DNA from: a virus
Taxonomy: Duplodnaviria > Heunggongvirae > Uroviricota > Caudoviricetes
Virus record (IMG/VR): IMGVR_UViG_2541047123_000012
DNA: 4,175 bases
Reading direction: 5' to 3' (one strand)
Shown here: positions 1 to 4,145 of the stretch, in pieces
Numbering within the stretch: the first letter of the stretch is position 1
Layout: each line of letters starts with the position of its first letter
Notes under the pieces: model-generated
Databases searched by the model: none
Told to the model about the DNA's origin: nothing
What the model saw: the letters and a program-made list of their open reading frames with translations, nothing else
Made by a program: the position numbers and the translations under genes

Positions 1-53
1 CAAACGAATCTGGTGCAGATTTTGTCTGCATCTCTTCGATACGTTTCAGCCAT
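1..53 (-). CDS. Possible 5' end of a further leftward gene (partial, runs off the window start)
   Basis: Minus-strand ATG at 51-53 opens a frame (MAETYRRDADKICTRFV...) that stays open to position 1. Only a weak purine-rich stretch (GAAGAG) lies upstream. A second ATG at 29-31 in another frame is equally possible. No recognisable homology. Confidence 0.2.
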   Translation of the reverse strand, partial: MAETYRRDADKICTRFV

Positions 54-124
54 CGCAGCACACTCTTCAAAGTTTGCTTAATGCTTTTTCGCTCCCATTC
101 GGCGCATTGTTTTTTCCAGTTCTG

Positions 125-550
125 CTATGCGCTTACTTTCCATCCGACGATTACTCCCTCGTAATATTCACGCTGCTCGTTGAGTTTTGATTTTGCTGCT
201 TCAAGCTCAACACGCAGCTTCCCAACCGTAAGCGCAATCCCCTCGTTCTCCTGGTCGCGGCGTTTGATGTATTGCTGGTTTCTTTCCCGTTCATCCAGCA
301 GTTCCAGCACGGTAGCCGGGTTAGCCTCTGCTATGAATTCAGCGTTTGCATAAGCCTGAGCATCTGATTCAATCAGGCAGTTAACATGACATTCCGCAAT
401 CACGCCACCGGGTTCTCCTTTCCATTTTTGGCAAACAAAAACTCCTGTTAAATTGCCGTGCTGGTTAACAGATGTATGCCCTACGATGTAGCTTCCTTTA
501 GTTGCTTTTTCTGCCTTTTCACGCAGTGCCTGATAATTAATTTCGCTCAC
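125..550 (-). CDS. Ea22-like protein (ead/Ea22 family, exo-xis region), 141 aa
   Basis: Minus-strand ORF with GTG start at 548-550 and TAG stop at 125-127. N-terminus MSEIN... and the coiled-coil-like segment LELLDERERNQQYIKRRDQENE...KLRVELEAAKSKLNEQREYYEGV match my memory of lambda Ea22. It is shorter than the 182 aa I recall for lambda Ea22. The GTG start overlaps the TGA stop of the upstream ORF by 3 nt (547-549 vs 548-550). Confidence 0.6.
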   Translation of the reverse strand: MSEINYQALREKAEKATKGSYIVGHTSVNQHGNLTGVFVCQKWKGEPGGVIAECHVNCLIESDAQAYANAEFIAEANPATVLELLDERERNQQYIKRRDQENEGIALTVGKLRVELEAAKSKLNEQREYYEGVIVGWKVSA

Positions 551-768
551 TTCGAACCTCTCTGTTTACTGATAAGCTCCAGATCCTCCTGGCAACTTGC
601 ACAAGTCCGACAACCCTGAACTGCCAGGCGTCTTCGTTCATCTATCGGATCGCCACACTCACAACAATGAGTTGCGGATACAGTCTGGTAGTTCAGGCGA
701 CGCATTTTTATTGCTGTATTGCGCTGTAATTCTTCAATTTCTGATGCTGAATCAATGATGTCTGCCAT
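547..768 (-). CDS. TraR/DksA-family C4 zinc-finger protein (lambda Orf73-like), 73 aa
   Basis: ATG at 766-768, TGA at 547-549. Translation contains CxxC-(17 aa)-CxxC (CECGDPIDERRRLAVQGCRTCASC), the hallmark of the DksA/TraR C4 zinc finger. Length and position (between the orf61-position ORF and ea22) match lambda orf73. Confidence 0.8.
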   Translation of the reverse strand: MADIIDSASEIEELQRNTAIKMRRLNYQTVSATHCCECGDPIDERRRLAVQGCRTCASCQEDLELISKQRGSK

Positions 769-820
769 CTTCCATTAATCCCTGAATTGTTGGTTAATAC
801 GCTTGAGGGTGAATGCGAAC

Positions 821-845
821 AATAAAAAAGGAGCCTGTAGCTCCC
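821..845 (-). terminator. Putative intrinsic terminator for leftward transcription
   Basis: Inverted repeat GGAGC (830-834) / GCTCC (840-844) with a 5-nt loop. On the minus-strand RNA the stem is followed directly by UUUUUUAUU (complement of the plus-strand A-run at 821-829). Lies about 20 nt downstream of the stop of the 867..1148 ORF. Confidence 0.4.
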
Positions 846-866
846 TGATGATTTTGCTTTTCATGT

Positions 867-1148
867 TCATCGCTCCTTAAAGACGCCGTTTAACATGCCG
901 ATCGCCAGACTTAAATGAGTCGGTGTGAATCCCATTAGCGTTACCGTTTCGCGGTGCTTCTTCAGTACGCTACGGCAAATGTCATCGACGTTTTTATCCG
1001 GAAACTGCTGTCTGGCTTCTTTGATTTCAGAATTAGCCTGACGGGCAATGCTGCGAAGGGCGTTTTCCTGCTGAGGTGTCATTGAACAAGTCCCATGTCG
1101 GCAAGCATAAGCACACAGAATATGAAGCCTGCTGCCAGAAAAATGCAT
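867..1148 (-). CDS. Small hypothetical protein at the lambda orf61 position (exo-xis region)
   Basis: Minus-strand ORF of 93 aa from ATG 1146-1148 to TGA 867-869. An internal ATG at 1080-1082 would give a 71-aa product (MTPQQENALRSIARQ...). Neither start has a strong Shine-Dalgarno, so the true start is uncertain. Same orientation and coding density as its neighbours. Confidence 0.5.
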   Translation of the reverse strand: MHFSGSRLHILCAYACRHGTCSMTPQQENALRSIARQANSEIKEARQQFPDKNVDDICRSVLKKHRETVTLMGFTPTHLSLAIGMLNGVFKER

Positions 1149-1158
1149 TCTGTTGTTG

Positions 1159-1350
1159 TCATGCCGGGTCTCTCTTGTTTGCTTCTGCTTTCGCCGCCAT
1201 CATTTCCAGCTTTTGTGAAAGGGATGTGGCTAACGTATGAAATTCTTCGTCTGTTTCTACTGGTATTGGCACAAACCTGACTCCAATTTGAGCAAGGCTA
1301 TGTGCCATCCCAATACTCGTTCTTAACTCAACAGGAGATGCTTTGTGCAT
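1159..1350 (-). CDS. orf63: Orf63-like protein (exo-xis region), 63 aa
   Basis: 192-nt minus-strand ORF, the same length as lambda orf63. It overlaps the downstream end of the orf60a-like ORF by 28 nt, which is the overlap I recall between lambda orf60a and orf63. Confidence 0.7.
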   Translation of the reverse strand: MHKASPVELRTSIGMAHSLAQIGVRFVPIPVETDEEFHTLATSLSQKLEMMAAKAEANKRDPA

Positions 1351-1505
1351 ACAGCCCCTCGTTTATTATTTATCTCCTCAGCCAGCCGCTGGGCTTTCAG
1401 TGGATTTCGGATAACAGAAAGGCCGGGAAATACCCAGCCTCGCTTTGTAACGGAGTAGACGAAAGTGATCGTGCCTACGCGGATATTATCGTGAGGATGC
1501 TTCAT
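1323..1505 (-). CDS. orf60a: Orf60a-like protein, 60 aa (62 aa if the ATG at 1509-1511 is used)
   Basis: Minus-strand [16 protein letters not shown]...; the translation begins Met-Ala-Met, so there are in-frame ATGs at 1509-1511 and 1503-1505. Starting at 1505 gives 60 aa and an ATGA start/stop overlap with exo (exo stop TGA at 1502-1504), as in lambda. Confidence 0.65.
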
Positions 1506-2182
1506 CGCCATTGCTCCCCAAATACAAAACCAATTTCAGCCAGTGCCTCGTCCATTTTTTCGATGAACTCCGGCACCATCTCGTCAAAACTCGCCATGTA
1601 CTTTTCATCCCGCTCAACCACGACATAATGCAGTCCTTCACGCTTCATACGCGGGTCATAGTTGGCAAAGTACCAGGCATCTTTTCGTGTCACCCACATG
1701 CTGTACTGCACCTGGGCCATGTAAGCCGACTTTATGGCCTCGAAACCACCGAGCCGGAACTTCATGAAATCCCGGGAGGTAAACGGGCATTTCAGCTCAA
1801 GGCCATTGCCGTCACTGCATAAACCATCGGGAGAGCAGGCGGTACGCATACTTTCGTCGCGATAGATGATCGGGGATTCAATAACATTCACGCCGGAAGT
1901 GAACTCAAACAGGGTTCTGGCGTCGTTCTTGAACTGTTTTCCCCAGGCCAGTGCCTTGGCATTAACTTCCGGAGCCACACCGGTGCAAACCTCAGCCAGC
2001 AGGGTGTGGAAGTAGGACATTTTCATGCCAGGCCACTTCTTTCCTGAGCGGGGCTTTGCTATCACGTTGTGAATTTCTGAAGCGGTGATGACGCCGAGCC
2101 GTAATTTGTGCCACGCATCATCTCCCTGTTCGACAGCTCTCACGTCGATCCCAGTACGCTGCAGGATAATGTCCGGTGTCAT
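1502..2182 (-). CDS. exo: Lambda-type 5'-3' exonuclease Exo (Red alpha), 226 aa
   Basis: ATG at 2180-2182, TGA at 1502-1504. Translation [36 protein letters not shown]... is recognisably lambda exonuclease over its full length, including the PD-(D/E)xK-type segment [18 protein letters not shown]. Start overlaps the bet stop by 4 nt (ATGA). Confidence 0.95.
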
Positions 2183-2965
2183 GCTGCCACCTTCTGTTCA
2201 GTGGCTTTTTGTTTCAGGAATCCAAGAGCTTTTACTGCTTCGGCCTGTGTCAGTTCTGACGATGCGCGAATGTCGCGGCGAAATATCTGGGAACAGAGCG
2301 GCAATAAGTCGTCATCCCATGTTTTATCCAGGGCGATCAGCAGAGTGTTAATCTCCTGCATGGTTTCATCGTTAACCGGAGTGATGACGCGTTCCGGCTG
2401 GCGTTCTGCAGTGTATGCAGTATTTTCGACAATGCGCTCGGCTTCATCCTTGTTATAGATACCAGCAAATCCGAAGGCCAGACGGGCACACTGAATCATG
2501 GCTTTATGCCGTAACATCCGTTTGGGATGCGACTGCCACGGGCCGGTGATTTCTCTGCCTTCGCGGGTTTTGAATGGTTCGCGGCGGCATTCATCCATCC
2601 ACTCGGTAACGCAGATCGGATGATTACGGTCTTTGCGGTAAATCCGGCAATGTACAGGATTCATTGTCCTGCTCAAAGTCCATGCCATCAAACTGCTGGT
2701 TTTCATTGATGATGCGGGACCAGCCATCAACGCCCACCACCGGAACGATGCCGTTCTGCTTATCAGGGAAGGCGTAAATTTCTTTCGTCCACGGATTAAG
2801 GCCGTACTGGTTGGCGACGATCAACAATGCGATGAACTGCGCATCGCTGGCATCACCTTTAAATGCCGTCTGGCGAAGAGTGGTGATCAGTTCCTGTGGG
2901 TCGACAGAATCCATGCCGACACGTTCAGCCAGCTTCCCTGCCAGCGTTGCGAGTGCTGTACTCAT
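2179..2965 (-). pseudogene. bet: bet (Red beta ssDNA-annealing protein) disrupted by a +1 frameshift
   Basis: ATG at 2963-2965 with GAGG about 10 nt upstream. The first 105 codons (MSTALATLAGKLAERVG...DNESCT) are in one frame and stop after 8 out-of-frame codons (LPDLPQRP, stop at 2624-2626). The remaining 156 codons (CRIYRKDRNHPICVTEW...EQKVAA, stop at 2179-2181) continue in another frame. 105 + 156 = 261 aa, the full lambda Bet length, and the locus is 787 nt rather than 786. The junction is at plus-strand 2648-2650 (caa where a single-base-shorter ca would restore the frame). Confidence 0.85.
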
Positions 2966-2970
2966 CCGTT

Positions 2971-3267
2971 TTATACCTCTGAATCAATATCAACCTGGTG
3001 GTGAGCAATGGTTTCAACCATGTACCGGATGTGTTCTGCCATGCGCTCCTGAAACTCAACATCGTCATCAAACGCACGGGTAATGGCTTTTTTGCTGGCC
3101 CCGTGGCGTTGCAAATGATCGATGCAGAGCGATTCAAACAGGTGCTGGGGAAGACCTTTTTCCATGTCGTCTGCCAGTTCTGCCTCTTTCTCTTCACGGG
3201 CAATCTGCTGGTAATGACGCGCCCAGCTCTGAGCCTCAAGACGATCCTGAATGTAATAAGCGTTCAT
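2971..3267 (-). CDS. gam: Gam, RecBCD inhibitor (short form GamS), 98 aa
   Basis: ATG at 3265-3267 with CAGGAG (complement of 3275-3280) 7 nt upstream; TAA at 2971-2973. Translation [21 protein letters not shown]...[10 protein letters not shown] matches lambda GamS with a few substitutions. Confidence 0.9.
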
Positions 3268-3321
3268 GGCTGAACTCCTGAAAATGGCTGTGAAAATATC
3301 GCCCGCGAAATGCCAGGCTGA

Positions 3322-3486
3322 TTAGGAAAACAGGAAAGGGGGGTAGTGAATGCTTTTGCTTGATCTCAGTTTCAGTATTAATATCCATTTTTTATAAGCG
3401 TCGACGGCCTCACGAAACATCTTTTCATCGCCAATAAAAGTGGCGATAGTGAATTTAGTCTGGATAGCCATAAGTGTTTGATCCAT
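3322..3486 (-). CDS. kil: Kil (host cell-division inhibitor), 54 aa as encoded here
   Basis: ATG at 3484-3486 with AGGAG about 9 nt upstream; start lies inside the 3' end of cIII in a different frame. Translation [47 protein letters not shown] matches lambda Kil, then continues YPPFLFS to a TAA at 3322-3324. Confidence 0.75.
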
Positions 3487-3619
3487 TCTTTGGGACTCCT
3501 GGCTGATTAAGTATGTCGATAAGGCGTTTCCATCCGTCACGTAATTTACGGGTGATTCGTTCAAGTAAAGATTCGGAAGGGCAGCCAGCAACAGGCCACC
3601 CTGCAATGGCATATTGCAT
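3455..3619 (-). CDS. cIII: CIII (FtsH protease inhibitor, lysogeny regulator), 54 aa
   Basis: ATG at 3617-3619 with AGGAG (complement of 3626-3630) upstream; TAA at 3455-3457. My own translation of the reverse complement gives [54 protein letters not shown], which is lambda CIII. Not in the ORF track because it is under the length cutoff. Confidence 0.9.
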   Translation of the reverse strand: MQYAIAGWPVAGCPSESLLERITRKLRDGWKRLIDILNQPGVPKNGSNTYGYPD

Positions 3620-3640
3620 GGTGTGCTCCTTATTTATACA

Positions 3641-3668
3641 TAACGAAAAACGCCTCGAGTGAAGCGTT
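3641..3668 (-). terminator. Weak terminator-like hairpin between ea10 and cIII (tL2-region candidate)
   Basis: Inverted repeat AACGC (3649-3653) / GCGTT (3664-3668) with a 10-nt loop containing the palindrome CTCGAG. On the minus-strand RNA the stem runs into UUUUUCGUUAU. Short AU-containing stem, so at best a weak terminator. Confidence 0.3.
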
Positions 3669-3691
3669 ATTGGTATGCGGTAACGCCGCGC

Positions 3692-4060
3692 TCAGGCGGC
3701 CTTGATAGTCATATCATCTGAATTAAATATTCCTGATGTATCGATATCGGTAATTCTTATTCCTTCGCTACCATCCATTGGAGGCCATCCTTCCTGACCA
3801 TTTCCATCATTCCAGTCGAACTCACACACAACACCATATGCATTTAAGTCGCTTGAAATTGCTATAAGCAGAGCATGTTGCGCCAGCATGATTAATACAG
3901 CATTTAATAAAGAGCCGTGTTTATTGAGTCGGTATTCAGAGTCTGACCAGAAATTATTAATCTGGTGAAGTTTTTCCTCTGTCATTACGTCATGGTCGAT
4001 TTCAATTTCTATTGATGCTTTCCAGTCGTAATCAATGATGTATTTATTGATGTTTGACAT
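3692..4060 (-). CDS. ea10: Ea10 protein, 122 aa
   Basis: ATG at 4058-4060 with GAGGA (complement of 4070-4074) 9 nt upstream; TGA at 3692-3694. Translation MSNINKYIIDYDWKASIEIEIDHDVMTEEKLHQINNFWSD... and the 122-aa length match lambda Ea10 as I recall it. Confidence 0.8.
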   Translation of the reverse strand: MSNINKYIIDYDWKASIEIEIDHDVMTEEKLHQINNFWSDSEYRLNKHGSLLNAVLIMLAQHALLIAISSDLNAYGVVCEFDWNDGNGQEGWPPMDGSEGIRITDIDTSGIFNSDDMTIKAA

Positions 4061-4077
4061 CTGTTCATATCCTCACA

Positions 4078-4106
4078 GATAAAAAATCGCCCTCACATTG
4101 GAGGGC
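4078..4106 (-). terminator. Intrinsic terminator immediately upstream of ea10 (leftward transcription)
   Basis: Perfect inverted repeat GCCCTC (4089-4094) / GAGGGC (4101-4106) with a 6-nt loop. On the minus-strand RNA the GC-rich stem is followed by GAUUUUUUAU (complement of 4078-4088). On the plus strand the same stem is followed by AAAGAAGA, so it is orientation-specific for leftward transcripts. Confidence 0.5.
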
Positions 4107-4145
4107 AAAGAAGATTTCCAATAATCAGAACAAGTCGGCTCCTGT

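Follow-up and report, generated by a model that had tools for sequence, protein, structure and literature searches.

Gene content of the window and its origin

The stretch of DNA analysed here, referred to throughout as the window, is 4,175 nucleotides long and is the entire contig AVQR01000069.1 of draft assembly GCA_000461935.2 (2013), from Escherichia coli 09BKT076207. The order of its genes is that of the lambda early-left operon, and all of them lie on the minus strand:

3692-4060, minus strand: ea10 (DUF2528), open reading frame
3455-3619, minus strand: cIII, open reading frame
3322-3486, minus strand: kil, open reading frame
2971-3267, minus strand: gam, 98 aa, intact; an uninterrupted open reading frame with a Pfam Gam match, its exact protein common
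2179-2965, minus strand: bet, broken; Pfam RecT
1502-2182, minus strand: exo, 226 aa, YqaJ/lambda exonuclease by Pfam; an uninterrupted open reading frame, probably chimeric
1323-1505, minus strand: orf60a, open reading frame
1159-1350, minus strand: orf63, open reading frame
867-1082, minus strand: orf71, 71 aa, open reading frame
547-768, minus strand: TraR/DksA-like open reading frame
125-550, minus strand: 3' part of an ea22-like gene, open reading frame

Several regulatory elements accompany these genes. The lambda cIII thermoregulator element (Rfam RF01804, 88.5 bits) lies at 3574-3632 on the minus strand, where it is expected, upstream of and into cIII. Terminator-like hairpins followed by a T tail on the coding strand, each a consensus match only, occur on the minus strand at 4087-4108 upstream of ea10, at 3649-3668 between ea10 and cIII, and at 828-846 between the TraR-like open reading frame and orf71. 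The Ea10 allele at 3692-4060 recurs in identical form only on contigs shorter than 2 kb, in Logan read assemblies and in one other draft from 2013 (loci L004-L011), which suggests that this segment exists in real genomes but sits in every case between repeats at which assemblies break.

Complete genomes that match the window do so at a median of 2 and a maximum of 12 places each, so the whole contig is multi-copy lambdoid prophage DNA. A second strain with the 09BKT prefix is among the GenBank O157:H7 genomes listed in PMC7216683. The best explanation of the window's source is that 09BKT076207 is an O157:H7-type E. coli and that the contig is a small leftover of its draft. The literature on the strain, the accession and its sister strains yielded no description of the platform or coverage of the assembly.

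An extra base in bet

A global alignment of lambda bet (NC_001416 32025-32810) with window positions 2179-2965 on the minus strand has 787 columns and a single gap. The gap is an additional coding-strand T at bet coding position 316/317, where the window reads ACATTGCCGG and lambda reads ACATGCCGG (ACA-TGCCGG); every other difference in this alignment is a substitution. The features of the broken gene are as follows:

2649..2650, minus strand: site of the extra base in the lambda bet alignment, plus-strand A to AA, coding-strand T to TT
2624..2965, minus strand: 5' open reading frame of bet, 113 aa, made of 105 native codons and 8 out-of-frame codons, then a stop
2179..2648, minus strand: 3' part of bet, native codons 106-261, in the +1 frame
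2387, minus strand: bet missense change D193V, private to the window, with an invariant T in 126/126 loci of relatives

The frame of the 3' part is open upstream as far as 2730, and the open reading frame at 2179..2730 (minus strand) encodes 183 aa from a TTG; its overlap with the 5' open reading frame covers 2624-2730. The depositor annotated the 3' part as a coding sequence of 139 aa at 2179-2598. A previous sequence-only reading of this DNA had the frame switching after codon 105, the two segments overlapping over 2624-2730 and the fragments summing to 261 aa. The open reading frames and the lambda alignment agree with it on all three counts, native residues 1-105 and 106-261 together making 261, and the junction that it placed at 2648-2650 is correct to within one base (AA at 2649-2650). 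When one A is removed, the gene encodes a Bet of 261 aa, in which 3 residues are not those of lambda Bet.

Bet has a single RecT domain, and the break interrupts it midway. Against Pfam RecT (PF03837, cut-off 24 bits), the first fragment matches profile positions 5-82 with 62.8 bits and the second positions 116-195 with 53.2 bits, and the repaired Bet matches positions 5-195 with 114.2 bits. Both fragments and the repaired protein thus have the domain match of a RecT-family member, and the gam-bet-exo synteny of a lambdoid early-left operon is present. No single uninterrupted open reading frame spans the annealing core (about residues 1-177), as the frame is lost after codon 105. The DNA-annealing core has been solved as residues 1-178 of Red-beta (PDB 7ujl; match E = 8e-122), and the break lies within it. 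Judging from this domain architecture, neither fragment could be expected to form a working annealing protein.

The surroundings of the site offer no signal for programmed frameshifting. Where the two open reading frames overlap, there is neither an X XXY YYZ heptamer nor a homopolymer of more than 4 nt; the longest, AAAA, lies 53 nt upstream. The 101 nt running downstream from the site fold with a minimum free energy of -25.3 kcal/mol and are not significantly more stable than shuffled sequences (mean -21.1, z = -1.19). Moreover, the frame break is not conserved among bet homologues. The view taken from the sequence at the outset, that nothing here suggests programmed frameshifting, is borne out by the missing heptamer, the lack of a long run and the unremarkable fold.

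The extra base appears to be confined to this one contig. An 81-mer at the site matched 2,676 complete E. coli genome records and 177 phage records, and in every one of the matches listed (40 from E. coli and 20 from phages) it corresponds to 80 bases (98.8%). A 40-mer centred on the insertion, in which each 28-mer seed necessarily spans the extra base, had 0 matches in 5,426 complete E. coli genomes and 50,697 phage records. Strings bearing the insertion were likewise absent from GTDB species representatives, IMG/VR and JGI metagenomes; as a control for IMG/VR, a flanking 30-mer from the window is present there in at least 120 viral contigs. Among the 145 loci that were fetched, 129 carry the wild-type string and 0 the insertion. 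At the protein level, the 113-aa and 139-aa Bet products occur on no contig but AVQR01000069.1 among ~15 billion proteins. They are deposited as ERB67943 and ERB67944 (the 113-aa product being ERB67943.1), are reported from NCBI alone and are absent from Logan read assemblies.

A panel of 119 full-length bet copies gave the same picture. As many as 117 are a single intact open reading frame, and 0 have the break of the window. The two remaining copies are broken at other sites: in IMGVR_UViG_2531839665_000007, AAA has become AAAA at coding position 459, and IMGVR_UViG_2698536307_000024 has a late stop at codon 256. The sequence-only reading had raised the question of whether the extra base is shared with lambda bet or with the alleles of related prophages, and it is shared by none of them. 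A pseudogene can be recognised by a disruption that a lineage shares or that recurs in independent sequence, and the searches found no second sequence carrying this one. The variant is private to one assembly, and its close relatives all lack the insertion.

Other irregularities of the contig

The bet site is not the only place at which the window departs from all of its relatives. Two further features matter for its interpretation:

44..148, plus strand: six private single-base insertions, seen in alignment to the Stx2c prophage of Rafaela_II
1930..1934, plus strand: TGAAC in place of the CGTAC of relatives, equal to the first 5 nt of IS629/IS1203

Over positions 1-260 the window is identical to the Rafaela_II prophage apart from the six insertions, with 0 deletions and 0 substitutions. 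Three of the insertions turn TT into TTT, one turns TTTT into TTTTT, one turns TTTTT into TTTTTT, and one adds an A. Positions 1-170 correspond to 164 bases in all best matches, and in 0 of 523 complete-genome records do they match at 99% or more. The insertions truncate the ea22-like open reading frame (125-550) to a 141-aa product that is unique. Insertions alone, six of them within the terminal 150 nt of a contig, are the pattern of a low-coverage, homopolymer-error-prone read tail and not of natural decay.

The second irregularity lies in exo. In the Stx2c prophage of TR01 (locus L026, NZ_CP033605.1 2709142-2715221), exo is split by a 1,310-bp IS629/IS1203 (L026 2224-3533, TSD TCT). The point of insertion is exactly window position 1930, and the left end of the element reads TGAACCGCCCC. 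At this place the window reads GTTCT-TGAAC-TGTTTT, in which the prophage flank is followed by 5 nt from the end of the IS and then by uninterrupted exo. The TGAAC arises from two private substitutions, at 1930 and 1932, which in the protein are Y84F and E85K. Parental type changes at the same point. The 277 nt to the left of the IS site (1653-1929) have 0 differences from the TR01 Stx2c prophage, and the 300 nt to the right (1935-2233) have 16, with alleles of other prophage types; from 2234 onwards the window is again of Stx2c type. A 40-mer across the TGAAC junction was found in 0 complete genomes, and the exact Exo protein of the window occurs on AVQR01000069.1 only, among ~15 billion proteins.

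Because the parental type switches at the IS-end hybrid, the uninterrupted exo open reading frame is probably a chimeric join of different prophage copies rather than a gene of 09BKT076207. The simplest reading is that reads from the IS-interrupted copy aligned until they diverged into the element and that reads from an uninterrupted copy carried the contig across. We also considered a natural footprint of IS629 excision, in which slippage between TCTTGAAC and TCTCGTAC would yield the identical 5-nt hybrid. This was rejected as the main reading on account of the 16 differences to the right of the site against 0 to the left. With gene conversion from another copy, the IS-end bases would have been lost. 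The initial description of bet as split beside an intact exo and gam therefore needs qualification: both neighbouring open reading frames are indeed uninterrupted, but exo is probably stitched together and its product is found nowhere else. The contig thus bears error signatures independent of the one in bet, namely the insertions at its end and the IS-end hybrid with its parental switch.

Exo is also inactivated naturally. The TR01 Stx2c prophage has an IS-split exo together with intact bet and gam. Many others of the top whole-window matches, such as EC4115, TW14359, SS17 and SS52, are annotated with two YqaJ fragments and an IS1203/IS3 transposase in the matching region. IS inactivation of the Red exonuclease in Stx2c prophages is real and widespread.

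The window carries six private substitutions, all missense; four of the sites (1019, 1176, 2028 and 2387) are invariant in 84-126 relatives. Besides D193V in bet the changes are:

2028, minus strand (exo): D52G
1932/1930, minus strand (exo): Y84F/E85K
1176 (orf63): E59K, private in the panel
1019 (orf71): K22E, private in the panel

Reverting single private missense changes restores known proteins, which occur on many contigs or, in the case of Bet and Exo, on 8 and 3 contigs. As deposited, the Exo, orf63 and ea22-like proteins are unique, and so is the repaired Bet: with V193 it has 0 occurrences among ~15 billion proteins, against the 8 contigs for D193. As evidence of error these substitutions proved weaker than hoped, as orf71 K22E is also present on one ENA metagenome contig (L147 9252-9467), where it belongs to another lambdoid prophage and the gene has five synonymous differences. 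K22E may thus be a recurrent or old natural variant and is not necessarily an error.

No complete genome matches the whole window at more than 98.7% identity. Mosaic structure was less informative. Exact-match tiling of 640-4100 from the 145 loci divides the window into 32 segments with 6 private singletons, and natural loci under the same tiling reach up to 31 segments and 10 singletons. Fine-scale mosaicism was dropped as evidence of an artefact, since natural loci reach similar values. A majority consensus of three O157:H7 copies (Stx2c, yehV and 933W types), judged by eye from a table of sites, fails to reproduce the window, so a simple model of a collapsed majority consensus is unsupported. 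Two local observations may be recorded. The orf60a-exo region (1290-2240) has a best identity of 97.9% among 5,442 places in complete E. coli genomes, and each of its non-private variant bases is present in some locus of the panel. In gam, the synonymous alleles at 3151, 3202 and 3214 are those of the yehV-type prophage of TR01 and not of its Stx2c prophage; the stretch 3151-3222 is of this yehV type and the adjoining bet of Stx2c type.

Explanations of the break and comparison with known prophages

Is the break a property of the prophage or of the contig? Judged from the assembled sequence and its relatives, the break in bet probably arose in sequencing or assembly, on a repeat contig that is itself chimeric. 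An artefact is favoured because no other sequence searched has the insertion and because further error-like features occur on the same contig. It is favoured also by the unique proteins that become known ones once single private missense changes are reverted, and by a best identity to complete genomes of no more than 98.7% for the window and 97.9% for 1290-2240. The insertion is also a duplication of an adjacent base and belongs to the same class of event as the insertions at the contig end. Under this explanation, reads from several near-identical lambdoid Red regions would have been assembled into one mixed consensus, which would join an IS629-interrupted Stx2c exo to an uninterrupted copy while retaining 5 nt of the IS end. 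Homopolymer-type +1 errors would have entered the contig, among them the additional A of bet. We infer that the bet insertion, the contig-end insertions and the IS hybrid share one cause and that bet is in frame at 2649-2650 in the real genome.

Several points count against an artefact. The bet site is in the interior of the contig, where a multi-copy repeat ought to be well covered, and a miscall from one base to two is a less typical consensus error than one in a long run. Natural inactivation of Red does occur in Stx2c prophages, as the IS1203 in exo of TR01 demonstrates, and the two broken bet copies in the panel of 119 show that bet itself is sometimes lost. Moreover, mosaicism is unable to separate the window from natural loci, and orf71 K22E on an unrelated metagenome contig shows that at least this change need not be an error.

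The break could instead be a genuine, strain-specific +1 slippage in a Stx2c-type bet, giving a recent private pseudogene in the course of stepwise prophage decay. This main rival we regard as unlikely; several observations fit it. The bet segment 2266-2965 is purely of Stx2c-prophage type, D193V is a second private change in the same gene, and the break falls inside the RecT core. In addition, the IS629 end within exo implies that the strain's own copy carries the element. In close relatives exo of the Stx2c copy is destroyed by IS629, so bet would be under relaxed selection, and copies of bet elsewhere are occasionally broken. Against these stands the fact that, with thousands of prophage copies in O157:H7 and other E. 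coli, the allele occurs only once, and the other insertions of the contig are clearly error-like. Moreover, 4-6 private missense changes and seven private +1 insertions in 4.2 kb seem far above what would generally be expected between close O157:H7 strains.

What would a genuine frameshift mean? The 113-aa fragment would lack half of the annealing core and would, on that ground, be non-functional. It would represent a second, strain-specific hit on a Red module whose exo is already split by IS629, and thus a snapshot of stepwise decay. It would also join the private pseudogenes that prophages of E. coli O157:H7 commonly carry.

It is very improbable that the bet frameshift is an adaptive knock-out, with loss of Red selected for a reason such as stabilising co-resident prophages. 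Only the general fact that Red is occasionally inactivated in O157:H7 prophages, by IS1203 in exo, speaks for it. The allele is common to no other genome, and neither spread nor recurrence at the site was seen among the sequences searched. Genomes of this kind have further prophage copies whose bet is intact, and Red function would therefore survive the loss of one. The sequence-only reading had named prophage decay, selected loss of recombination and assembly error as the options; assembly error is the one now favoured, and selected loss, with its allele a singleton, is left unsupported.

That the frameshift is decoded into functional Bet, whether by programmed +1 ribosomal frameshifting, transcriptional slippage or reassembling fragments, has a negligible chance of being right, as we found nothing in its favour, the site offers no slippery heptamer, no homopolymer above 4 nt and no significant downstream structure, 117 of 119 full-length relatives are intact and none of the 119 has the break, and it cuts a single RecT domain in the middle.

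The favoured explanation, an artefact, carries a caution. A textbook gene seems to be inactivated beside an apparently intact exo and gam, yet the contig is of low quality and chimeric. No biological conclusion about Red proficiency should rest on AVQR01000069.1. ERB67943 and ERB67944, together with the Exo and ea22-like products of the contig, are probably artefactual database entries. Neither of the two leading explanations would tell us anything new about Red biology.

How does the window compare with known systems? It shares with the lambda Red module (gam-bet-exo) the minus-strand order ea10, cIII, kil, gam, bet, exo, orf60a and orf63. Lambda bet is intact, whereas bet of the window has its one additional nucleotide at 316/317.

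The closest natural counterparts are the Stx2c prophages of O157:H7 (phages 2851 and 1717; Rafaela_II and TR01), which are the best matches, with 98.5-98.7% identity over the window. Positions 1-759 are identical to them apart from indels, and positions 2266-2965 are identical except for D193V and the bet insertion. Unlike these prophages, the window resembles alleles of other prophages at 1294-1652 and 1935-2233, carries seven private +1 insertions and lacks the body of the IS, yet retains 5 nt of its end. The IS629/IS1203 in Stx2c exo sits at the same site as the hybrid of the window, with its 1,310-bp body missing there; past this site, the window continues as a 5' part of exo that is not of Stx2c type.

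Draft assemblies can contain repeat contigs that are collapsed or chimeric, and indel errors in homopolymers. The bet insertion differs from typical homopolymer errors in being internal and in arising in a run of length one. In other respects the window is like a collapsed repeat contig: it is short, stands alone and is made of multi-copy prophage DNA only, +1 errors in T or A runs are concentrated at one end of it, and it has a junction hybrid at the point where one copy diverges into an IS.
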